Assembly: GCA_964351755.1 (NCBI GenBank)
Contig: CAYGPT010000001.1
Coordinates: 95,474-159,473 of the forward strand
DNA: 64,000 bases
DNA from: an uncultured Rhodobacterales bacterium
GTDB lineage: Bacteria; Pseudomonadota; Alphaproteobacteria; Rhodobacterales; Rhodobacteraceae
Direction: 5' to 3'
Numbering within the stretch: the first letter of the stretch is position 1; each line of letters begins with the position of its first letter. Both the position numbers and the translations under genes were made by a program. Shown in pieces: positions 13,550 through 32,642 of the stretch. The notes under the pieces are model-generated. The model made no database searches. It saw only the letters and a program-made list of their open reading frames with translations, and had not been told where the DNA came from.

Positions 13550-13564
13550 TTAAGCCTTGATTGA
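13550..13564. promoter_or_regulatory. CtrA-like box TTAA-N7-TTGA in the fliI/flgB divergent region
   Basis: TTAAgccttgaTTGA read directly, one mismatch to TTAA-N7-TTAA. It lies 24 nt upstream of flgB ATG 13588 and 45 nt upstream of the fliI ATG. Confidence 0.35.
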
Positions 13565-17659: not shown

Positions 17660-18145
17660 ATGAAAATGTTACTTCCCCTCGTTTTGCTTTTGGTTGGCGT
17701 TGGCGCCGGCGTCGGCGCAGGCATCTTCCTGCGTCCACAACCCGCACCCATCGCCGATGGCGAAGAAGGTCATGAGAAGATCGAGATCAAAACGCGGGCC
17801 GAAGAAACTGCAATCGATCTGACCCGTGAATACGTCAAGATGAACAACCAATTCGTTGTGCCAATCGTAGATGGCGATTCGATCGAGGGCCTCGCAGTTC
17901 TGTCATTAAGCCTTGAAGTCCCGGCCGGGCAAAAAGACGCAATATATTCCCGCGAACCAAAGCTGCGCGATTCCTTTCTGCAGGTCCTGTTTGACCACGC
18001 CAATATTGGCGGCTTTGACGGGGCATTCACCAATGCCAACAACCTCGCCGTATTGCGCGGAGCACTGCGCGAAGTTGCGCAAAAAGTGATGGGTGACCAG
18101 ATAAGTGACGTGCTGATCATCGACATCGCGCGTCAGGACTACTGA
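17660..18145 (+). CDS. FliL-family basal-body-associated protein (paralog 1)
   Basis: N-terminal TM helix, then a FliL-type core (EYVKMNNQFVVPIV...LSLSLEV...PKLRDSFLQVLF). Confidence 0.6.
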   Translation: MKMLLPLVLLLVGVGAGVGAGIFLRPQPAPIADGEEGHEKIEIKTRAEETAIDLTREYVKMNNQFVVPIVDGDSIEGLAVLSLSLEVPAGQKDAIYSREPKLRDSFLQVLFDHANIGGFDGAFTNANNLAVLRGALREVAQKVMGDQISDVLIIDIARQDY

Positions 18146-20401: not shown

Positions 20402-22498
20402 TCACGCCGCGATAACTCCGACAAGTGCCGGGCGGGCGTCTACTCCGATCTCTTCGAAGGATAGAACGGGATTCGAAATCCCTTTGGCCCGCATCAGCGT
20501 TTTCACGAACCTGCGCCGCCGTGTGTTGGTGACCACCGCTGGAAAAATGCCCTGTTCGCTGATGTCCTGCAACTTTTCGGACATATTGTCTGCAAGCCTG
20601 TTGAATAGGTCGGGCGGCAGTGCCACGTCCAGCCCACGCTCGGCATCGACCTGATAATTCGCGAATGTGTCTTCCCACTCGGGTGCAAGCTGTACCAGTG
20701 GCAGGCTGCCGTCCGGACGGCGCATTTCGGCTACCAGTTGAAACCCAAGCCGCTGTCGTACCAGTTCGCAGATGCTTTCGGGTTGAGCGTTCCGACCACG
20801 GGCTTCTGCCGTTGCCTCAAGGATCAACGGCAGGTTCCTGATCGACACTTGTTCGTCCAGCAATAGCCTCAACACGGCGTGAAGTATATCAATCGGCACC
20901 TTGTCCGGGATCAATTCGTCCAGCATCTTCTGGTTAGCTTCAGCGCGGGCTGGGTCACTGATGTTGGTCATTTCGCGCAACAGGCGACGCAGGGATTTGA
21001 GGGTGAGCAACCTGCTGAAATTGCGTTTCACGACCTCCAGAAGATGCGTCGCCAATATTTCTGTCGGCGTGACAATGGTTACACCCGCGAGGGCTGCGGC
21101 CTCCTGATCTTCGTGCGCGATCCATCGGGCTGGCGCGCCATAGACAGGTTCGGTCGTGTCCTGACCGGCGGGCATCTTTGAGTTGTCGTCAGGGGTCAAG
21201 GCAAGGATATCCATGGATCGCAGATCGCCACGCGCCTGTTCGACACCTTGAATGCGCAGAACGTAGACGCCAGTCTTGAGCGCGGGGTTGTCCGTTAATC
21301 GTATCTCGGGCAGGATCAACCCGAACACGGACGCGACATGAGTGCGCATATTGGCAATCCGCGCGTCAAGCCCGGTGCCGGGGTCAAGCACCATGTTCAC
21401 GAGATCGGGCGCGAATTCGACATGGATATCGTCCAACTCCAAAACATCGCCCAACGATTTTTCGGTTGTGGTCGGATGTTCAAAATTTTCGTCTTGTCTT
21501 TCACTGTCGGCAGCCCTCAACTTTCTGTTGATTACGAAAGCGGCAGCGGACAACGCAATTCCGCCGAGCATGAATGGTGCCAGCGGCAATCCCGGAACCA
21601 GACCGAACATCCCCATCAAGACCCCGACTGTCATAAGCGCTGCGGGATGTTTGCCAAGCTGGCTGAACACAGCCAAGTCCGTAGCACCCTTGGCGCCCCC
21701 TCGGGCCAGCAGCAGTGCTGACGCGATGGAGATCACGACCGCCGGAATTTGTGACACCAACCCATCACCCACCGTCAGGATGGCGTAGGTTTCAAAGGCG
21801 TTGGACAAAGGCATGCCATGCACGACGACCCCCATAACGAGACCCGCGACGAGGTTGAGAAGGGTGATGAGAAGGCCCGCAACTGCATCGCCTTTGACGA
21901 ACTTGGACGCACCGTCGAGCGAGCCAAAAAAGGTCGTTTCGGCTTGTTCGAGCTCCCGGCGCGCTTTGGCCTCCTGATGCGTGATGGCTCCGGCTGACAT
22001 GTCGCTGTCGATTGCGAGTTGTTTGCCAGGCATACCGTCAAGGGCAAACCGCGCGCCGACTTCGGCCATCCGGGTCGCGCCCTTGGTGATGACCATGAAG
22101 TTGACGATCAGAAGGACGCAAAACACCACAAGGCCTAGAAAGACACTGCCTCCCATAACAAACTGCGCGAAGCCTTGAATGACCTCTCCAGCGGCTTGCG
22201 TACCTGTGTGCCCCTGCCCAATGATCAATTTTGTCGACGAGACGTTCAATGAAAGGCGCAGCATCAGCGAAGCAAGAAGAATGGTCGGAAATGCGGAAAA
22301 ATCGAGAGGCCGCTCTATGAACAGAGTGATGGTAAATATGAGAATGGCCAGCGCGAAAGACGCCGCCAAGCCGACATCGAGCACCCATGCAGGCATCGGC
22401 AAAATCATCATGACGATGACGGCCATCAACGCAACAGCGAGCAGAACAGTGGGATTGAACAGGGCGCTTGGGTTGAACGCGATTCCGGACTCAGACAT
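20402..22498 (-). CDS. flhA: Flagellar export gate protein FlhA
   Basis: 698-aa FHIPEP-family protein with an N-terminal TM domain and a cytoplasmic C-domain. An AGGAGG RBS precedes ATG 22498. The ORF-track start 22675 is an over-extension. Confidence 0.97.
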   Translation of the reverse strand: MSESGIAFNPSALFNPTVLLAVALMAVIVMMILPMPAWVLDVGLAASFALAILIFTITLFIERPLDFSAFPTILLASLMLRLSLNVSSTKLIIGQGHTGTQAAGEVIQGFAQFVMGGSVFLGLVVFCVLLIVNFMVITKGATRMAEVGARFALDGMPGKQLAIDSDMSAGAITHQEAKARRELEQAETTFFGSLDGASKFVKGDAVAGLLITLLNLVAGLVMGVVVHGMPLSNAFETYAILTVGDGLVSQIPAVVISIASALLLARGGAKGATDLAVFSQLGKHPAALMTVGVLMGMFGLVPGLPLAPFMLGGIALSAAAFVINRKLRAADSERQDENFEHPTTTEKSLGDVLELDDIHVEFAPDLVNMVLDPGTGLDARIANMRTHVASVFGLILPEIRLTDNPALKTGVYVLRIQGVEQARGDLRSMDILALTPDDNSKMPAGQDTTEPVYGAPARWIAHEDQEAAALAGVTIVTPTEILATHLLEVVKRNFSRLLTLKSLRRLLREMTNISDPARAEANQKMLDELIPDKVPIDILHAVLRLLLDEQVSIRNLPLILEATAEARGRNAQPESICELVRQRLGFQLVAEMRRPDGSLPLVQLAPEWEDTFANYQVDAERGLDVALPPDLFNRLADNMSEKLQDISEQGIFPAVVTNTRRRRFVKTLMRAKGISNPVLSFEEIGVDARPALVGVIAA

Positions 22499-22850
22499 AT
22501 CGACCTCCTGATTGGTCGATGATGCGGCCACAGTTCGCGAATTCGATCGGGCCTGGGCAAATCGACGAACCAGATTGTAGGTCCTTGATGCGCTGCGAGG
22601 GACTGATGATTCGCTGTATTGCGCCGGCACATGCAGTCTTTGGCAATACGGGAGTGTTAACACAATTGCTGCCAATGGCTTGAATTCTTATGGCGGGTTT
22701 GCATTGCGCAAGCGACCCACATCCTAGAGTCGAGACCCGCGCTGAAAATTCAATAAATTCCAAAACTTACCCTCATCACTTTCTGTGATTGGATGATCAT
22801 AAGGCTTGGTAGATTTACATTTGGTAACCATGTTCGAGAAACTGAACAAA

Positions 22851-25139
22851 CTAGTTGTCGACAATGCTCGAATCGTTGAAATTCAATAACTGTCGGATCG
22901 CCTCCCGTGCGCCTTCACTCTCCGAAACTGCTGTTTTTGCGCGCTCGAGCATTCCGTCGGTTTCCGGTGGATTGTCCAAAGTCGTCTGTGCCACGCGGAC
23001 GACGGGTCCAAATACGGGCGCCGCTTCTTCTACCAAAAGGGACCATTCGTCAGACAGCCATGCAGCGCGTTGGCTATTTGGTCCGTCTCCAATATCAGAG
23101 TAGATTGAGTGCGCCTCGGAATAATCGCCTGCCCGGATTTCGGCCTCAGCACGCAGGACAGATGCCGCTTCCGAATTCTCGCCAAAAAGGTGCGCCAATG
23201 CTTCCTGCGGGCGCTGCAAAGCAATCGAAATCTCAGCTCTGAGCAATGCGGATTGTGAGGTTTTCGGCTCACCGGTTCCTGCCGCAAGAATGATTTCGGC
23301 TTGTTCAAAGAAACCGAGTTCAGTCAACCGCTTTGCGATCCGGAATCTGGTTTTGGGTAGGATCGTTTCCGGTGCAATAGCCATTTGATCAAAGCTATGA
23401 TCAAGGAATTCAACATCCGACGCACTGCGGGACATCAAGTCAAGTACAGAAGAACGCAACGGGTCTTCTGTTATGTCGGTCGCGCGAGCGCGCACTCGCG
23501 ACAATGCTTCGAACGCCGCAGAGAACTGCCCGGATTTGCCAAGCGCGAGGACATGTGCGCGACGCAATTCATCGCCGATTGGATCATCGCGCATTTCCAT
23601 GGCGTAGGCTTCGACAAGAGTTGCGACGTCTTCGTCGATTTCGGCATCTTCCTCCAAGTGAGAGTCAATGAATTTGATCAATGCCTCGGCGGATTGTTCT
23701 GCATTTGAGGCCACGATTTCAGATAAGCGATCCTGTGCTTGAGCGACGTCTCCCTGAGCGATTTCGATGTCCGCCTTGGCCAGATTCGCATTCGATGACA
23801 GCGGCTCGGGGGCGCGTTCAAGACTGCGCAAAGCCGCTGCCGCGCCCGCCTCATCACCATAGGCCAACAGGCGGCGGCTGAGTTCCGGCGCGATGAACCT
23901 GCGAAGATGCATCGGCAAACCGCTCAGGCTCAACAACGCTGCTTTGATATTGATCGTGCGCGCCGGATCAATTTCCGGGAGCGACAAAATTGCCCAAAGT
24001 GCTGCCTGATTGTCGCAATCTACAAAATTGCCCAGGAAATGCGTGTCTCGACTATAACCGTATTCCATAATCTCCGCGATTGCGCTCAGCGCCGGATATG
24101 TTTGGGCCAACGACGCGTCTAGCTGAAGGATTTTCTTTGCTTCAGCGCCAAATCCGTAGTGCAAGTATGTTTTTGCAAGCGCCAGAGCGGCGCCGCGGTC
24201 CAGCCGGTCAAACTCGCCGTAAAGCTGGCTGCGAAGTTGGGCGAGTCGACCTACCAGTCCGATGTCTGCACCCCAATCCTGAACCGCAATCAGGGCAGGG
24301 TCGATACATGGAATGCCAAGTGAGGTCGACGTCTGCACCTGATCCTGGCCAACCCGCGGAATATCGGAACTGCTGGTAATCCGGATGTTGCCATTCCGTG
24401 TCTGACTTGCGCTTTCGGGTCTTTGAGTCGTCGCGGGTGTGTCGAAAATGCGCGTGTCTATTTGCGGTTTTGGGAGTGCGGTGACCAGACTTAATCTGCC
24501 GCCAGCGGGCGTGAGGATACCACGAGTTGCCGCACCGCTGATTTGGCGGGACAGCTTTTGTTGTGCATTTCGAAGACCCTCAGTGTCCGGTTTTGCCTGG
24601 TCCGAACCGGTTGCAAATGCTTCGAAGTTGCTAGGCAGTACTGCGTTTTCAGTCTCGTTTTGCGGTTCCGTTTCACGAGTTTGGTCAATGGTCCGTTGGC
24701 GCGGTGCCGCTGGTATCTCGGACTCCGTGAAACGCAGCGGGCGCTGACCGACAAAGCTCAGGGCGAAATCCTGTGAAGGCGTCGGCGTGAATTTGGTTGC
24801 TTTCGAAACATCCAGAACGATCATTCTTGGACCTTGAGCGAAAGCGCGGGCGCTGCACTCGCATGAAAACTCAACCGTGAGTGTCGTGTTGTCCGCGGAA
24901 ACGTTGGCGATAAAAGTGCGATCGATGCGATTGAACACTTCCGATGAGTCAAAGCCGCCTTCGTGGCCTTTGAGCACGAGCCTTGCGCTGCCAGAATTCT
25001 GGTCGAGGGTCCATTGCGTTCCTGCTGGCACATACAGAACTAACCGCGCGAAATCTGCATGTGCGCCCGAACGCACGTCGATTTCCTGAGCAAGCGCAGG
25101 CGCGGAAAGAAATAGTAGAGCAAGGACAAACCACCTCAT
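22851..25139 (-). CDS. Secreted 762-aa protein of unknown function: AMIN-like N-terminal module, low-complexity linker and helical-repeat C-terminal region, translationally coupled to motA
   Basis: ATG 25137-25139 overlaps the motA stop (ATGA), with a GAGGTGG RBS. Signal peptide MRWFVLALLFLSAPALA/QE. I recognise no named flagellar family. Confidence 0.8.
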   Translation of the reverse strand: MRWFVLALLFLSAPALAQEIDVRSGAHADFARLVLYVPAGTQWTLDQNSGSARLVLKGHEGGFDSSEVFNRIDRTFIANVSADNTTLTVEFSCECSARAFAQGPRMIVLDVSKATKFTPTPSQDFALSFVGQRPLRFTESEIPAAPRQRTIDQTRETEPQNETENAVLPSNFEAFATGSDQAKPDTEGLRNAQQKLSRQISGAATRGILTPAGGRLSLVTALPKPQIDTRIFDTPATTQRPESASQTRNGNIRITSSSDIPRVGQDQVQTSTSLGIPCIDPALIAVQDWGADIGLVGRLAQLRSQLYGEFDRLDRGAALALAKTYLHYGFGAEAKKILQLDASLAQTYPALSAIAEIMEYGYSRDTHFLGNFVDCDNQAALWAILSLPEIDPARTINIKAALLSLSGLPMHLRRFIAPELSRRLLAYGDEAGAAAALRSLERAPEPLSSNANLAKADIEIAQGDVAQAQDRLSEIVASNAEQSAEALIKFIDSHLEEDAEIDEDVATLVEAYAMEMRDDPIGDELRRAHVLALGKSGQFSAAFEALSRVRARATDITEDPLRSSVLDLMSRSASDVEFLDHSFDQMAIAPETILPKTRFRIAKRLTELGFFEQAEIILAAGTGEPKTSQSALLRAEISIALQRPQEALAHLFGENSEAASVLRAEAEIRAGDYSEAHSIYSDIGDGPNSQRAAWLSDEWSLLVEEAAPVFGPVVRVAQTTLDNPPETDGMLERAKTAVSESEGAREAIRQLLNFNDSSIVDN

Positions 25140-26008
25140 CACGCGACGTTCTGCTTTGCGGCCTTCAACGCTTCTTCCAGCTCCGCGAAAGACGGGCGGC
25201 AATGTGAAGGTGTATTCTGGCGTCCGACTTCGATACAGATATTGGTCGCGTGGTTATGAAGATTGGCCACCAAAACCTCCCGGATAAGCTGGTAAAAATG
25301 CGCGTCCTCTTCCACCACCGCCTTGACCTTCGACGCGAACGGGCCGACTAGACCGTAGGCAAGGAAGACCCCAAGAAAGGTGCCAACCAGAGCGCCACCA
25401 ATCAGCTTACCGAGGACTTCTGGCGGTTGGTCGATCGAAGCCATCGTCTTGATCACCCCCAAAACCGCCGCGACGATTCCCAAAGCAGGCAACCCGTCGG
25501 CGACGGTTTGCAACGCATGGCTTGAATGCAGCGCGTGATGCATGTTCGCATCAATCCGTTTTTCAAGGACTTCCTCGACTTGATGCGGGTCATCGTAGTT
25601 CATGGATGCCGAGCGCATGGTGTCGCAAATCAACGCAACAGCCTCTTTGTCCTCGATAATTTTGGGATACCGGGAGAAGATGGAAGAGTTTTCCGGGTCT
25701 TCTATGTGCTCTTCGATGGCGACCGGATTCTGGCGGGCGAGGCGGATCAGTTCGAACAAGAGGCACAGCAGGTCTTTGTAATCTTCATGCGCCCACTTTG
25801 GGCCCTTGAAGACTTTGCCAATGTCCTTGGCGGTATGTTTGACTTCGGAAATCGAGTTGCTGATTAGGAATGCACCGATGGCAGCGCCAAGGATCATCGT
25901 CATTTCGAACGGCAAGGATTTGAGGATGATCCCCATCTTACCACCGGCGGCAAGGTAGCCGCCAAAGACCATGACAAAAATAGTGATGATTCCGATAATG
26001 CCGATCAT
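25139..26008 (-). CDS. motA: Flagellar motor stator protein MotA
   Basis: 289 aa of the MotA/TolQ/ExbB channel family (MIGIIGIITIFVMVFGGYLAAGG..., PALGIVAAVLGVIKTM, GALVGTFLGVFLAYG). Confidence 0.9.
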   Translation of the reverse strand: MIGIIGIITIFVMVFGGYLAAGGKMGIILKSLPFEMTMILGAAIGAFLISNSISEVKHTAKDIGKVFKGPKWAHEDYKDLLCLLFELIRLARQNPVAIEEHIEDPENSSIFSRYPKIIEDKEAVALICDTMRSASMNYDDPHQVEEVLEKRIDANMHHALHSSHALQTVADGLPALGIVAAVLGVIKTMASIDQPPEVLGKLIGGALVGTFLGVFLAYGLVGPFASKVKAVVEEDAHFYQLIREVLVANLHNHATNICIEVGRQNTPSHCRPSFAELEEALKAAKQNVA

Positions 26009-26075: not shown

Positions 26076-26687
26076 TCAGCTTTTCGGCGCTTTGGCATTT
26101 CGACCTGCAAGGATTGCGCTGATCGAATAGGCTGCTTGCGGATCAAGGTCCGACATGATCTTGGCAGCTACGTCCGGACGCATACGCGCCAAGAATCCCG
26201 CCGCGAATTCCGGTTCCATCGCCTCGAACAGGGGGGCAGCATCCTTGGCCTTCATGTTCTCGTAAACCGTCGTCAATCGCGCAATGTCGTCTTCGGCAGC
26301 AGTTTCGGCGTGTGCAAGGGTTGCGCTCAGGCGTATTTCGGCCTGTTCAAGGGCGTCTAGCCGCCTTTCGATTTCAACTTGCGCTACGTCCAACGCCTTG
26401 GCGCGCACGCCCAATTCCGTTTCCCGTTCTGCGACGCGCGTTTCGCGTTGCCTTAAAGCATCCAAGAGCGACTGGATCTGGGTGTGATCAACGGGTGCGG
26501 GTGTTTTATGTGCTTCTGCGTTCCGGGCAGGCAAGAGCAATTGGTTTGCAAGCCCTACCTCTGCAACCGCCGCTCCGGCACCGGTGGCCACGCGCAGTAT
26601 TGCGGAACCGACCAACAGTGTTGAAATTAACAGGATCGACCCACGCCCGGAAGCGAACCCCTTGGTTTTGCGCTTCTGTCCCATCAT
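26076..26687 (-). CDS. MotE-like (MgtE_N-type) flagellar motility protein
   Basis: N-terminal TM/signal segment, a coiled coil, and a C-terminal motif TTVYENMKAKDAAPLFEAMEPEFAAGFLARMRPDVAAKIMSDLDP typical of the MotE/COG3334 family. Confidence 0.55.
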   Translation of the reverse strand: MMGQKRKTKGFASGRGSILLISTLLVGSAILRVATGAGAAVAEVGLANQLLLPARNAEAHKTPAPVDHTQIQSLLDALRQRETRVAERETELGVRAKALDVAQVEIERRLDALEQAEIRLSATLAHAETAAEDDIARLTTVYENMKAKDAAPLFEAMEPEFAAGFLARMRPDVAAKIMSDLDPQAAYSISAILAGRNAKAPKS

Positions 26688-27061
26688 TTCGCCCCCGCTG
26701 CACGGCGCGTGAACATCGGTTCCGTGCCCGTCTGTGCCTGTGTTGCCGACTGCACTGTTTTGGGTTTTTGCGGTGGTGAAGGAATATCGTGGAGAGAGGC
26801 CATTTGCAGTTCCAGTTGCTGTGCAGTCTGCTCGGCGCGTGACGTCAACTGCTCCAGCGTTTCTGTTGATTCTGCAGCCGTTTTTTGCGCGGCGGCCAGC
26901 ATCTTGCTAAGGTCGTCAACCTGAGCGGAAAGCACCGCCACGGCACCGCCAACCCCCGTTTCAAGGTTGTTGAACCGGTTCAGGCGTCGCCCAAGAACGA
27001 AACAGTAAAAACCGGCGCCAATAGCCCCCGCAGCCAGGAGAATGTCAGCTATCAAATCCAT
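26684..27061 (-). CDS. Small membrane-anchored coiled-coil protein of unknown function
   Basis: 125 aa with one N-terminal TM helix (LIADILLAAGAIGAGFYCFVL), then a coiled coil. The stop overlaps the start of the motE-like gene. Confidence 0.6.
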   Translation of the reverse strand: MDLIADILLAAGAIGAGFYCFVLGRRLNRFNNLETGVGGAVAVLSAQVDDLSKMLAAAQKTAAESTETLEQLTSRAEQTAQQLELQMASLHDIPSPPQKPKTVQSATQAQTGTEPMFTRRAAGAK

Positions 27062-27070
27062 ATCTCACCT

Positions 27071-27598
27071 TCAATTCAGCACAAATTCCATGATCAGCAG
27101 ATCGTTTACACGGCCGGGACCAGCCACGACTTGCACTCGGCGCAACAGCTGCGCACGCAGCCGCGTCATCGCGGCCGGACTGTCGATATCCCGTGTTTCG
27201 AGCGCGCGCAGATATCCGTTCAAAACATCCACAACCCGGGGCAACAGGGTTTCCACGTCCCCTGCATATTGCGACGGGACTTCCAGTTGCGCGCGAAACC
27301 TCAAGTGGCGCCCTTGCGAGGCGGGGCTGAGGGATACGGTCATCGGCTCAACCGGAACAAATGCGACATCCGGTAAAGCATCTGGCTGCGCGTCATCTTC
27401 GACGACTTGATCGGAGGATTCGGAGGCCAGAATCAGGCCCGAAAAGGTGGCATAAAACCCTCCGCCGCCGCCCGCCAAGGCGGCGACAATGCCAAGGATC
27501 ATAGGCACTTTCGATGATTTCCTGGCCTCTTGCGGGGCATCTGCCACGGCGTCCGTCATTTTCATTCCATCTGCTGATGTCAAAATCTGTTTTGGCAC
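27071..27598 (-). CDS. fliL: Flagellar basal-body-associated protein FliL (paralog 2)
   Basis: TM helix followed by the FliL core (FVPVEPMTVSL...RHLRFRAQLEV...LLPRVVDVLNGYL...IMEFVLN). The start is GTG 27598 or ATG 27565. Confidence 0.75.
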   Translation of the reverse strand: MPKQILTSADGMKMTDAVADAPQEARKSSKVPMILGIVAALAGGGGGFYATFSGLILASESSDQVVEDDAQPDALPDVAFVPVEPMTVSLSPASQGRHLRFRAQLEVPSQYAGDVETLLPRVVDVLNGYLRALETRDIDSPAAMTRLRAQLLRRVQVVAGPGRVNDLLIMEFVLN

Positions 27599-27605
27599 AG
27601 ATCAA

Positions 27606-27620
27606 CTAACCGATTGTTAA
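27606..27620. promoter_or_regulatory. CtrA-like box CTAA-N7-TTAA in the fliL/fliF divergent region
   Basis: CTAAccgattgTTAA read directly, one mismatch to TTAA-N7-TTAA. It lies between two divergent flagellar operons. Confidence 0.4.
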
Positions 27621-30983: not shown

Positions 30984-32642
30984 TCAGATAAAGCTCCCTT
31001 GACAGAACCACCCCGCAGACATCGCCCCACCGTGCCCATAAAACAGCCATAGCCGGTGTCCGTCGGTCGTGTCCGTCACCCAATAGTCCCGCGTGCCGCT
31101 GCGCCAGTTCGGATCGTCCAGCCACCATTCCGGGGCCATGCGTTCAGGTCCGATTGCGCGCTGGCGAGTCAGGGTGCGCCCACGCCAGCGGAAGGTCTCT
31201 GGCATCTGCGGCACTGCGGGCGCATGAACGGCTTCGGGGGGCCAGAGCAGCAAGGGGCGTGGGTTGGGCGGTGTGGGCCATGTCCCGTCATGCGGTTGCG
31301 ACCATGCGGCCAACAGGATCTGGTGCGACTTTTCAGGAATGTGACTGTCCGCCGGGTGCATGCGCCGGATCGCATCCAGCCCCACCCGCGCGCCCAGTCG
31401 CCCCACCAGATCGTCCAGCGCATCGGCCTTGTTCAGCCGCGACTGCACCGCGGATCCGGCTTGAAGGTGCCCGACCACGACCGCATCGTGCAGTGGCTCG
31501 ACCTGCGAGGCCACCAGCCGCAACATGTCGATACCGAAGCCCGCGTCGATCTCACACAGCTTCATTTCAAGCAGCGGACGGATGCGGGCGGGATCAAAGC
31601 TGGGGCGGGCCAACCCGACCTCGATCACCTCGACGCCGTGATCACTGCGATAGGCCTGAAGGGTGACGCGACGCGCCCCTTTCGCCTTGGTCTTCAACGC
31701 GCTGCACAGACGTGGCAGCAGCCGGTCGATCCCGGCCATCATGTCCTCAGTCAGGCCGATCGGGTCGGGCAGGGTCATGCGCACTGCGAAATGGTCCGGC
31801 GGTTTGGCCGGAGAGACGGGTTCGGGCGCGCTGCCCATGGCCTGATCCAGACGCATGACCAACCCCCGCCCAAAGCGGCGCGCCAACCCCGCACGCGGCT
31901 GGCCCAGCAGATCACCGACCCGGCGCAACCCCAGACGACCCAACTGCGCCGTCACCTCAGGCTCAAGGCGCAGCGCGGCGATTGGCAGGGGGCTAAGCGC
32001 GCCATAGGTCTGGCCGGGTGGCGCGATGCGCGCTGCACTGTCCGTCCGGGTCCGGATGGCAGGTGCCGCGCCTCCCTTGGTCCAGTGCCGCCGCTTGCCT
32101 GCGCGCGACCGGGTGGCGCGCGCCTCCTGATCGATGGCATCGCCTGATCGGTCCGATCCTGCCGCCCGGCCTGCATAGCGCGCGAGCGCCCAGGCCGCCC
32201 CGCGCGTATCGGCCAGCCCCATCAGAACGCTCAGACCCAGATCGGTGCAGTCATCCGCGACCACCTGCATCAACTGCGCCTCGCCCCCGAACAGATGGGC
32301 ACAGCCCGTCAGGTCCACCACCAACGCATCGCCATCTTCCGGTGCGACCCAAGGGCTGAACTTTCCCGCCCAGCGTTGCAGCGCCTCAAGAAACCGCGCA
32401 TCACCCACCACACTGCGCGGATGGGTCAGCAGGCCTGGACACATGGCATGGGCGTCGCGCACGGGCTGGCCAACCTGCAACCCCTGCGCCTGTGCTACGG
32501 CGTTCAAAGCGGTGATTACCTGCATGTTCTGCTGCTCCTGCACCACGGCAAGCGGCTGATCGCCCAGCAACGGCTGGCGCCGGATCAGACGTTCGGCCCC
32601 CAATCGGGGGAACCATAGGGACAGGATGCGACGGTCGGACAT
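30984..32642 (-). CDS. imuB: ImuB-type Y-family DNA polymerase (SOS mutagenesis cassette component)
   Basis: The N-terminus MSDRRILSLWFPRLGAERL...LAVV is the ImuB hallmark. 552 aa. An alpha-type LexA box lies directly upstream. Confidence 0.8.
   Translation of the reverse strand: MSDRRILSLWFPRLGAERLIRRQPLLGDQPLAVVQEQQNMQVITALNAVAQAQGLQVGQPVRDAHAMCPGLLTHPRSVVGDARFLEALQRWAGKFSPWVAPEDGDALVVDLTGCAHLFGGEAQLMQVVADDCTDLGLSVLMGLADTRGAAWALARYAGRAAGSDRSGDAIDQEARATRSRAGKRRHWTKGGAAPAIRTRTDSAARIAPPGQTYGALSPLPIAALRLEPEVTAQLGRLGLRRVGDLLGQPRAGLARRFGRGLVMRLDQAMGSAPEPVSPAKPPDHFAVRMTLPDPIGLTEDMMAGIDRLLPRLCSALKTKAKGARRVTLQAYRSDHGVEVIEVGLARPSFDPARIRPLLEMKLCEIDAGFGIDMLRLVASQVEPLHDAVVVGHLQAGSAVQSRLNKADALDDLVGRLGARVGLDAIRRMHPADSHIPEKSHQILLAAWSQPHDGTWPTPPNPRPLLLWPPEAVHAPAVPQMPETFRWRGRTLTRQRAIGPERMAPEWWLDDPNWRSGTRDYWVTDTTDGHRLWLFYGHGGAMSAGWFCQGSFI

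Follow-up and report, generated by a model that had tools for sequence, protein, structure and literature searches.

The closest described system is a named family, MotK/CP4, known from two separate literatures. The first concerns the Fla2 flagellum of Cereibacter sphaeroides, whose MotK (RSWS8N_12065; UniProt Q3IY86 / WP_011338873.1) is a periplasmic protein needed for rotation and not for assembly, the mutant being flagellated but paralysed (Velez-Gonzalez et al., 2024; PMC10954123). It binds MotE and MotB2 and is encoded in a fliL2-pflI-motE-motA2-motK operon. MotK-sfGFP gathers at the pole in a focus that coincides with the hook, provided that MotA2/MotB2 are present; without MotK, MotE is degraded, and MotK was not found in purified basal bodies (PMC10954123). 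Its published fold comprises eight beta strands, a disordered stretch and TPR-like helices, with AmiC and then PilQ as the best matches, and its authors describe its similarity to roseobacter proteins as 'low' (PMC10954123).

The second literature concerns Phaeobacter inhibens DSM 17395 and its CP4 (PGA1_c35690, WP_014881579.1): six transposon mutants in this gene are immotile, yet continue to export FliC, FlgK and FlgE (mSystems, 2025; PMC12363192), a behaviour consistent with a paralysis phenotype. A TM1040 CP4 transposon mutant is tabulated in the same study, and its Table S2A gives CP4 orthologs in P. inhibens, TM1040, M. algicola, D. shibae and C. sphaeroides 2.4.1, the last of these placed between motA and slt/flhA; CP4 is labelled 'conserved hypothetical' there, with no link to MotK (PMC12363192). 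MotK, MotC and PflA have in turn been treated as counterparts that partner the MotE/FlgY E-ring, PflA being a spoke between that ring and the stators (PMC12054838, PMC13023049).

The window, i.e. the whole 64,000-nucleotide stretch of Rhodobacterales DNA analysed here, carries an ORF that is very likely the ortholog of MotK/CP4 in a Tateyamaria-like roseobacter and would act as a stator spoke or anchor. The assignment to MotK rests on gene order, predicted fold, published BLAST and orthology statements, and a bridging homolog from Paroceanicella.

Gene order and the junction with motA

In the ORF list of the window, the gene occupies positions 22851-25139 of the minus strand (762 aa plus stop codon), with its ATG at 25139-25137 and its stop ending at 22851. 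Directly upstream on the same strand is motA, encoding a 289-aa stator protein (25139-26008; TIGR03818, 371 bits; Pfam MotA_N and MotA_ExbB). The earlier note on this DNA had placed the 762-aa ORF with its start at 25137-25139, overlapping the motA stop, which the sequence confirms, but the overlap is TGATG (25137-25141, minus strand) and not ATGA as the note had it: the motA TGA (25141-25139) and the motK ATG (25139-25137) have a single base in common. The GAGGTGG that had been taken for a ribosome-binding site in the 3' end of motA actually lies within codons 1-3 of the ORF (25137-25131), made up of the final base of the start codon and codons 2-3 (AGG TGG, R W). Because the 15 nt upstream of the motK start (AGAACGTCGCGTG) contain no Shine-Dalgarno-like run, the sequence makes termination-reinitiation the more likely basis of motA-motK coupling, rather than a Shine-Dalgarno-driven start. 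An alternative TTG start at 25202 was rejected, as it lies inside motA and the homologs all begin at the motA stop.

The ORF had also been described as sitting in the slot normal for motB. A motB directly after motA is the enteric motAB layout. The archetypal Rhodobacterales cluster places motB first in a separate motB-flgEKLI operon (PMC12363192), an operon not found in the window; none of the 39 window ORFs scanned with Pfam is a motB.

The gene closes an operon of the order fliL-pflI-motE-motA-motK, all on the minus strand. It opens with fliL (27071-27598; Pfam FliL, 50.5 bits), followed by a pflI-like gene (CP2; 26684-27061), which has a weak DUF6468 match and the position of pflI in C. 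sphaeroides and P. inhibens, and by a motE-like gene (CP3; 26076-26687) of the MotE/FlgY/FlbB E-ring family (COG3334), with a Pfam MgtE_N match of 26.1 bits (cutoff 25.9) and a weak NCBIfam match to the collar protein FlbB. The previously reported pairing of motA with a MotE-like gene in one operon is borne out by these matches, and the five genes match genes 10-14 of the published fla1-type cluster table (PMC12363192). In the divergent fliL/fliF intergenic region (27606-27620, no strand assigned) lies a CtrA-box-like site, CTAA-N7-TTAA, with one mismatch, at a position that agrees with the published CtrA control of the C. sphaeroides operon (PMC10954123). Only two one-mismatch CtrA sites occur in the window, a count no higher than chance; there is no perfect TTAA-N7-TTAA box in the window, and a promoter and terminator scan of the operon performed no better than on shuffled sequence.

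For related loci we compared the best 80 of 387, all of them from Roseobacteraceae and none from C. sphaeroides. The fliL-pflI-motE-motA-motK order is kept in 76 of these 80, and the motE-like gene is likewise present in 76. Among the loci intact at the relevant edge, motA is immediately upstream of the homolog in all 78. At the junction itself, the motA stop and the homolog start overlap in 67 of 78 loci (ATGA in 49, TGATG in 18), and 76 of 78 show either an overlap or a gap of at most 5 nt. By these comparisons, conservation of the gene, of where it stands and of how it joins motA exceeds chance across at least 78 loci. An orphan copy outside flagellar clusters, at locus L051, still has motA alongside.

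Relatives are encoded in at least 387 species genomes, and the family amounts to 4,520 representative clusters at 50% identity. Homologs number 83 proteins, and profile searches with 28 and then 146 sequences recovered the same 88 proteins as a single-sequence search, reaching no named Cereibacter, Phaeobacter or Dinoroseobacter protein. On a Paroceanicella plasmid, in a Paracoccaceae genome, sits a full-length homolog with the same operon around it (hhalign probability 100%, E = 4e-59). The earlier note had been able to match the protein to no named flagellar family; MotK/CP4, a characterised one, fits, and Pfam and NCBIfam hold no model for it, which makes the miss understandable. Homologs go by 'hypothetical' or 'TPR' protein in their source records, and once by 'M48 metallopeptidase'. 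The practical value of the assignment is annotation of a large family still called 'hypothetical' or 'TPR protein', and joining the MotK and CP4 literatures provides a mechanistic frame for roseobacter motility genetics, with MotE as the E-ring and MotK as the stator spoke or anchor.

Architecture of the predicted protein

The N-terminus, MRWFVLALLFLSAPALA before QE, has a basic n-region, a hydrophobic core and A-L-A at -3 to -1, with no lipobox Cys in this leader, and is read as a Sec signal peptide (aa 1-17; 25089-25139, minus strand) over which AF2 predicts a helix at aa 2-11. A comparable hydrophobic leader begins the homolog in 78 of 78 loci (among the best 80 of 387), and the window protein is presumably periplasmic. 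AF2 modelling of the full length gave eight beta strands at aa 20-113 (pLDDT about 90), disorder from residue 116 to 267 apart from a single helix, and an all-helical stretch from aa 270 to about 700 (pLDDT above 90). Much of what had been read from the translation survives here: the leader has the form of the cleavable Sec signal proposed and is kept in the 78 homologs, the division into a beta module, a T/Q/S/P/E-rich linker and a helical region is upheld by AF2 and by composition, and the statement that the protein is not MotB accords with the lack of any OmpA or MotB signature in Pfam and NCBIfam. MotB was rejected as an identity since the N-terminus is a cleavable signal, with no TM helix carrying the Asp and no OmpA domain.

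The eight-stranded domain (aa 18-114; 24798-25088, minus strand) is AMIN-like by AF2, Foldseek and sub-threshold Pfam matches in relatives, and carries the invariant residues H27, R32, C93, C95 and D110. Modelled alone it reaches pLDDT 95.8 and pTM 0.86, and its top three Foldseek matches in the PDB are, in order, the AmiC AMIN domain (4bin), the PilQ B2 domain (4aqz) and PilQ (4av2), with TM-scores of 0.62 to 4bin and 0.64 to 4aqz; the AMIN-like character proposed earlier finds support in these best matches. The AMIN matches have probability 1.00 and an E-value of about 3e-3, which is marginal, and small-heat-shock and p23 beta-sandwiches rank shortly after them. With Pfam AMIN (PF11741) and AMIN-like (PF24837) the window domain gave no match even at E <= 10; 21 of 26 family members match AMIN-like (best E 3.4e-5) and 7 of 26 match AMIN, in every case under the cutoff. 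Like the AMIN domains of AmiC (4BIN) and PilQ (4AQZ), the domain has two four-stranded sheets with RLVL-type and xxVLDV-type strand motifs, but identity to them is 13-14%, the window copy falls under the Pfam thresholds, and its CxC motif and invariant His are specific to the MotK/CP4 family. Peptidoglycan binding is putative, given the missing Pfam AMIN match, the marginal Foldseek E-values and the closeness of the sHSP and p23 sandwiches.

Between this domain and the helices lie two disordered linkers with a P+T+Q+S+E fraction of 0.44-0.49. Linker 1 (aa 115-183; 24591-24797, minus strand; P/T/Q/S/E-rich) has pLDDT 30-40, mean conservation 0.18 and a gap fraction of 0.29, and linker 2 (aa 212-267; 24339-24506, minus strand) has pLDDT below 50 and low conservation. 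Set between them is a conserved helix (aa 184-211; 24507-24590, minus strand; AF2 helix at aa 186-205, pLDDT about 82) that is gap-free and highly conserved across 146 sequences, L196, A203 and G207 each being at least 97% conserved.

The remainder is a TPR-like alpha-superhelical domain of about 25 helices (aa 268-700; 23040-24338, minus strand), so assigned by pLDDT above 90 and by Foldseek, whose full-length matches are TPR proteins with the Campylobacter jejuni motor scaffold chain 9hmf_K in second place. It contains invariant C278, E333, C375 and W382 and a GFGAEA motif, and Pfam TPR_19 reaches 24.3 bits on the window protein against a cutoff of 25. A C-terminal helical tail (aa 701-762; 22854-23039, minus strand) is predicted as helices at lower confidence, with L731, S741, R745 and L752 conserved. 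Exactly four cysteines at fixed positions are found in 145 of 146 mature sequences, and these probably form two disulfides that stabilise MotK in the periplasm.

Comparison with described motor proteins

The window protein shares with C. sphaeroides MotK a Sec signal, an eight-strand AMIN-like domain whose structural matches come in the same order (AmiC, then PilQ), a disordered Pro-containing linker and TPR-like helices, as well as the last place in fliL-pflI-motE-motA-motK with stop and start overlapping or closely spaced. It differs in length (652 aa in C. sphaeroides vs 762 aa), in a confident helical region that is shorter in C. sphaeroides (residues 260-535), and in the slt that follows C. 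sphaeroides motK, absent from the window. Like P. inhibens CP4, which also comes from Roseobacteraceae, it follows motA directly in a gene cluster of the archetypal Rhodobacterales fla1 type; in P. inhibens, unlike the window, sltF stands between CP4 and flhA.

PflA of C. jejuni and Helicobacter pylori (PDB 9HMF) has the same plan, beginning with a beta-sandwich and passing through an unstructured linker into a long TPR superhelix, and 9hmf_K, at 773 residues, is consistent with mature PflA. PflA partners the E-ring protein FlgY, of the MotE family, and scaffolds stators (PMC12222027, PMC12054838). Sequence similarity to PflA is undetectable with the family profile, which matched nothing among all PDB sequences, 9HMF included, at E <= 1 except a designed repeat protein. 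The PflA N-domain binds PflB, whereas the flagellar cluster of the window yielded no second TPR protein resembling PflB. Further differences are that pflA lacks coupling to motA and that the motors of Campylobacterota carry additional disks.

MotC of Sinorhizobium meliloti and Agrobacterium is likewise a periplasmic TPR-type protein, essential for rotation and a MotE partner, but it does not begin with a beta domain, and its gene belongs to motB-motC-fliK instead of following motA. No MotC profile in Pfam or NCBIfam matches the window protein, and A. fabrum has no CP4 homolog by TBLASTN (PMC12363192, Table S2B). A MotC identity was rejected for want of similarity and for the different gene context.

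The CC_2058-type proteins of Caulobacter crescentus (P0083-P0088, 958-1195 aa) have the N-domain in common with the window family (profile E down to 1e-21), contain TPR repeats and have fliL, pflI (DUF6468) and a motE-like gene in their genomic neighbourhood. They are much longer, align over only about 12-15% of the query and lack an adjacent motA; in both loci examined fliM stands between fliL and pflI, and the large gene is separated from the motE-like gene by cheY and cheZ.

A proposed spoke or anchor of the stator, and alternatives

In the reading that we favour, MotK would be exported through Sec and serve the flagellar stator as an accessory protein in the periplasm. By analogy with PflA in Campylobacter and Helicobacter, its TPR superhelix would be a radial spoke linking the E-ring, the MotE ring that surrounds MS-ring and rod, with the part of MotB that reaches into the periplasm, and the AMIN-like domain, on its flexible linker, would fix the whole to peptidoglycan or another binding partner. 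So placed, MotK could recruit MotA/MotB units, or keep them active with the plug open, so that the motor turns; coupled in translation to motA, it would be made in step with the stator. A periplasmic stator or basal-body scaffold akin to MotC and PflA, with a MotE-like partner and possibly specific to Rhodobacterales, was what the earlier note had proposed, in agreement with the experiments on C. sphaeroides MotK.

It is possible, if short of probable, that the family is the same but the beta domain is a module for binding another protein, with no anchoring role in peptidoglycan; its partner would be FliL, the domain of MotB that lies in the periplasm, or some rim protein. C. jejuni PflA, of the same architecture, wraps its beta-sandwich and linker around PflB, not peptidoglycan (PMC12222027); the AMIN likeness is marginal by Foldseek with sHSP/p23 sandwiches close behind, the window domain misses the Pfam AMIN models, and the conserved linker helix resembles a docking motif. 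Against such a module count the AMIN domains that fill all three top structural matches, the sub-threshold AMIN-like matches in most of the family members scanned, and the want of a PflB-like partner in the window's flagellar cluster.

It seems unlikely that MotK acts on the stator only in passing, as a periplasmic chaperone or activator that, for instance, opens the MotB plug or stabilises MotE, instead of being a stable part of the motor. The degradation of MotE in C. sphaeroides lacking MotK and the basal bodies purified without MotK (PMC10954123) speak for such a passing role, as does the original description of S. meliloti MotE as a MotC chaperone. The hook-associated polar focus of MotK-sfGFP with its MotA2/MotB2 dependence (PMC10954123) speaks for a stable component, PflA, the counterpart, is a stoichiometric structural spoke, and a 762-aa protein built of a TPR superhelix and an anchoring domain on a tether looks more like a scaffold.

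It is quite improbable, taken as a whole, that MotK goes beyond a PflA-like accessory and makes up, in fixed stoichiometry, a third subunit of the stator in Rhodobacterales. On that reading the near-universal overlap with motA may fix MotK synthesis to that of MotA, motA and motK may travel together as a module, also away from flagellar clusters (L051 being a case), the two invariant disulfides may staple the AMIN-like domain to the TPR domain, and the conserved linker helix may dock on MotB or MotE; if true, anchoring of the stator to peptidoglycan would be delegated partly to MotK and not left to MotB alone. A generic periplasmic TPR protein beside motA by accident, with no flagellar role, is already effectively refuted: the borderline TPR_19 match as sole curated-database signal and the 'hypothetical' or 'TPR' names of homologs would fit it, but motA is immediately upstream at all 78 intact loci (best 80 of 387) with the overlap conserved, disruption of homologs in three species gives motility phenotypes, and the orphan copy keeps its motA.

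For the MotK/CP4 family as favoured here, residues H27, R32 and D110 and the GFGAEA motif offer mutagenesis targets for stator activation or recruitment, along with two minor points that are new, the four invariant cysteines and the conserved linker helix.

A named family at the end of the motA operon

The 762-aa ORF that the earlier note placed at 22851-25139 is present as described there (ATG at 25139-25137, stop ending at 22851, minus strand), and is the last gene of a fliL-pflI-motE-motA-X operon. That note could match it to no named flagellar family, but the slot is that of MotK/CP4, described in PMC10954123 and PMC12363192; the protein is a member of this named and experimentally characterised family, and as such is already known. 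Its identity and architecture are shown by the present analysis, whereas sequence similarity to the type protein, C. sphaeroides MotK, is presumed from published statements and a Paracoccaceae (Paroceanicella) bridge. Its value lies in annotation of the family and in targeted mutagenesis, while the points that are new here are small: four cysteines, a linker helix, an orphan motA-motK pair, and large proteins with only the N-domain in common.

The C. sphaeroides Fla2 operon runs fliL2-pflI-motE-motA2-motK (Velez-Gonzalez et al. 2024, PMC10954123). Its stator accessory protein MotK is 652 aa long, compared with 762 aa for the window protein, and has a Sec signal, disordered Pro-rich segments and TPR-like helices, with the AMIN domains of AmiC and then PilQ as best models for its eight-strand N-terminal region (PMC10954123). 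Phenotype and interactions have been shown by others in homologs: motK and motE mutants of C. sphaeroides are paralysed yet flagellated, MotK and MotE are both periplasmic, MotE binds MotK and MotB2 and is unstable without MotK, and MotK-sfGFP is found at the flagellated pole only with MotA2 and MotB2 present (PMC10954123). Low-similarity MotK homologs follow motA in Roseobacteraceae (e.g. Dshi_3259), and distant ones occur in Caulobacter (CC_2058) (PMC10954123). A 2025 Phaeobacter study, in which MotK is unmentioned, names the post-motA gene CP4 (PGA1_c35690); its six transposon mutants were immotile and retained export of FliC, FlgK and FlgE, and orthologs are tabulated for TM1040 (also transposon-hit), M. 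algicola, D. shibae and C. sphaeroides 2.4.1 (PMC12363192). The C. sphaeroides 2.4.1 ortholog sits between motA and slt/flhA (PMC12363192), which is the position of motK.

Among curated profiles, the target has a single, borderline match in Pfam (TPR_19, 24.3 bits; cutoff 25) and none in NCBIfam. The upstream genes, by Pfam/NCBIfam scan, are motA (directly adjacent; TIGR03818, 371 bits), a MotE-like gene at 26076-26687 (MgtE_N; also a weak match to FlbB, the collar protein of spirochaetes), a small gene resembling pflI (weak DUF6468), and then fliL, with fliF-fliH-fliN-fliP divergent from the operon. The MotE-like protein contains no cysteines, unlike MotE of C. sphaeroides (Cys20) and S. meliloti (Cys53), which need a disulfide for stability; its N-terminal hydrophobic segment could be a membrane anchor (cf. 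FlbB and CC_2059).

Linkage to motA

Read base by base, the motA stop codon (TGA, 25141-25139) and the target ATG share a single base, as TGATG, and not the four bases of the ATGA overlap claimed previously. The GAGGTGG taken for a ribosome binding site within the motA 3' end (25137-25131) is made up of the final G of the ATG followed by codons 2 and 3 (AGG TGG, Arg-Trp), and therefore lies inside the target ORF. As no Shine-Dalgarno-like run was found in the 15 nt upstream of the ATG, the junction points to coupling of motA and the target by termination-reinitiation.

A single-sequence search returned 83 homologs, mostly from Tateyamaria and unnamed roseobacters and annotated throughout as 'hypothetical' or 'TPR', and an exhaustive profile search reached 4,520 representative clusters at E ≤ 1e-3 (2,728 at E ≤ 1e-30). 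Scanning species-representative genomes, we found relatives in 387, the best 80 of which were Roseobacteraceae without exception. Co-occurrence with motA, a check proposed in the earlier note, is borne out: motA is immediately upstream in 78 of these 80 loci, the other two being contigs that end there, and fliL, pflI and motE precede motA in 76. Of these 78 motA junctions, 49 read ATGA and 18 read TGATG, and nine others have the stop and start codons no more than 5 nt apart. Across the same loci, identity is 79-94% for MotA compared with 30-55% for the target protein, which by this measure is evolving much faster than its coupled partner.

The Paracoccaceae (NCBI family) member Paroceanicella profunda carries, in a flagellar cluster on plasmid pD4M1D, the order fliL-x-x-motA-[883 aa] with an ATGA overlap. 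This 883-aa full-length family member (L084, 8839-11490), annotated as a hypothetical protein, matches the family profile over 732 columns (probability 100%, E = 4e-59). In an Aliishimia MAG (OY782680.1; L051, 5087-8292), a motA and motK-like pair with a TGATG overlap adjoins rmlD/rmlA, LysM and rhodanese genes, with no other flagellar genes found within 6 kb; it is an orphan two-gene module in one genome. Proteins of about 1,000-1,200 aa have only the N-domain in common with the family. Two of these, of 979-1181 aa (L085, 6001-9546; L086, 6001-8940), are encoded downstream of fliL-fliM-DUF6468(pflI)-[motE-sized gene]-cheY-cheZ and have no motA next to them, a context that resembles the Caulobacter arrangement, and are probably distant relatives of the CC_2058 type.

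Architecture and proposed role

The AlphaFold2 model of the full-length target (28-sequence alignment, mean pLDDT 78.4) agrees with the earlier reading of a beta module, linker and helical region. A signal helix, whose sequence MRWFVLALLFLSAPALA/QE has the form of the cleavable Sec signal claimed previously, precedes eight beta strands (aa 20-113, pLDDT about 90), a disordered segment (aa 116-183), a confident helix (aa 186-205), further disorder (aa 209-267), and a domain of helices only that spans aa 270 to about 700 (pLDDT > 90). In the family alignment of 146 sequences, this linker helix appears as a gap-free stretch (aa 184-211, window 24507-24590, pLDDT about 82) with L196, A203 and G207 conserved at 97% or more, in a linker otherwise disordered and poorly conserved; it could be a docking motif. 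Of the 146 mature sequences, 145 have exactly four cysteines, at fixed aligned positions: the beta domain holds a CxC formed by C93 and C95, and the first part of the helical (TPR) domain holds C278 and C375. This pattern suggests two putative structural disulfides, possibly stapling the beta and TPR domains together; the only cysteine taken up in the MotK paper is one of MotE, and the four-cysteine pattern goes unmentioned there (PMC10954123).

Modelled alone (pLDDT 95.8, pTM 0.86), the N-domain has as its top PDB match the E. coli AmiC AMIN domain (4bin, TM 0.62), followed by the PilQ B2/AMIN domain (4aqz, TM 0.64; 4av2), the same order as for C. sphaeroides MotK, and then by small-heat-shock and p23 sandwiches. 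Sub-cutoff matches to Pfam AMIN-like were obtained for 21 of 26 family N-domains, and to AMIN for seven; the window's own N-domain matched neither. The full-length model matches generic TPR superhelices, with a C. jejuni flagellar periplasmic scaffold (9HMF chain K) at rank 2, whose length of 773 residues fits mature PflA.

MotE, FlgY and FlbB form a periplasmic E-ring around the MS-ring, each with a TPR partner (MotK, MotC, PflA or FlcB) through which the ring connects to the stators (PMC12054838, PMC13023049). In C. jejuni, 17 PflA spokes, each with 16 TPRs after a beta-sandwich and an unstructured linker, position the PflB rim and stator units (9HMF source paper). By analogy, we infer a spoke-like geometry in which the target TPR superhelix would bridge the MotE ring and the periplasmic region of MotB, and the AMIN-like domain, on its tether, would fix this assembly to peptidoglycan or another partner, so that stators are recruited or kept in an active state. 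The main rival is that the N-domain binds a protein and not peptidoglycan, as the equivalent domain of PflA binds PflB; the AMIN evidence for the target is marginal.

Layout of the flagellar cluster

Gene order from 5611 to 30939 is that of genes 06-37 in the table of PMC12363192, an archetypal fla1-type Rhodobacterales cluster; genes 01-05 of that table, the motB-flgEKLI operon, do not occur in the window. Right after fliP comes an ImuB-like gene of the IMS family (30984-32642), and non-flagellar DNA therefore separates the two cluster halves, as reported for D. shibae. Between motK and the likely flhA start lies a gap of about 355 nt (22496-22850) in which no slt gene was found, whereas a lytic transglycosylase gene occupies that place in P. 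inhibens, C. sphaeroides and several related loci (L081, L082). A second FliL paralog (17660-18145), fliL-2 of the Phaeobacter table, adjoins flgH, as in other fla1-type clusters.

One-mismatch sites for the CtrA box (TTAA-N7-TTAA) number only two in the 64 kb, a count not above chance. One (27606-27620) is in the fliL/fliF divergent region; the other (13550-13564) is probably in the fliI/flgB divergent region, provided that fliI begins at its inferred start, since the fliI ORF as listed runs across this site. Their placement fits CtrA control of the flagellar cluster.
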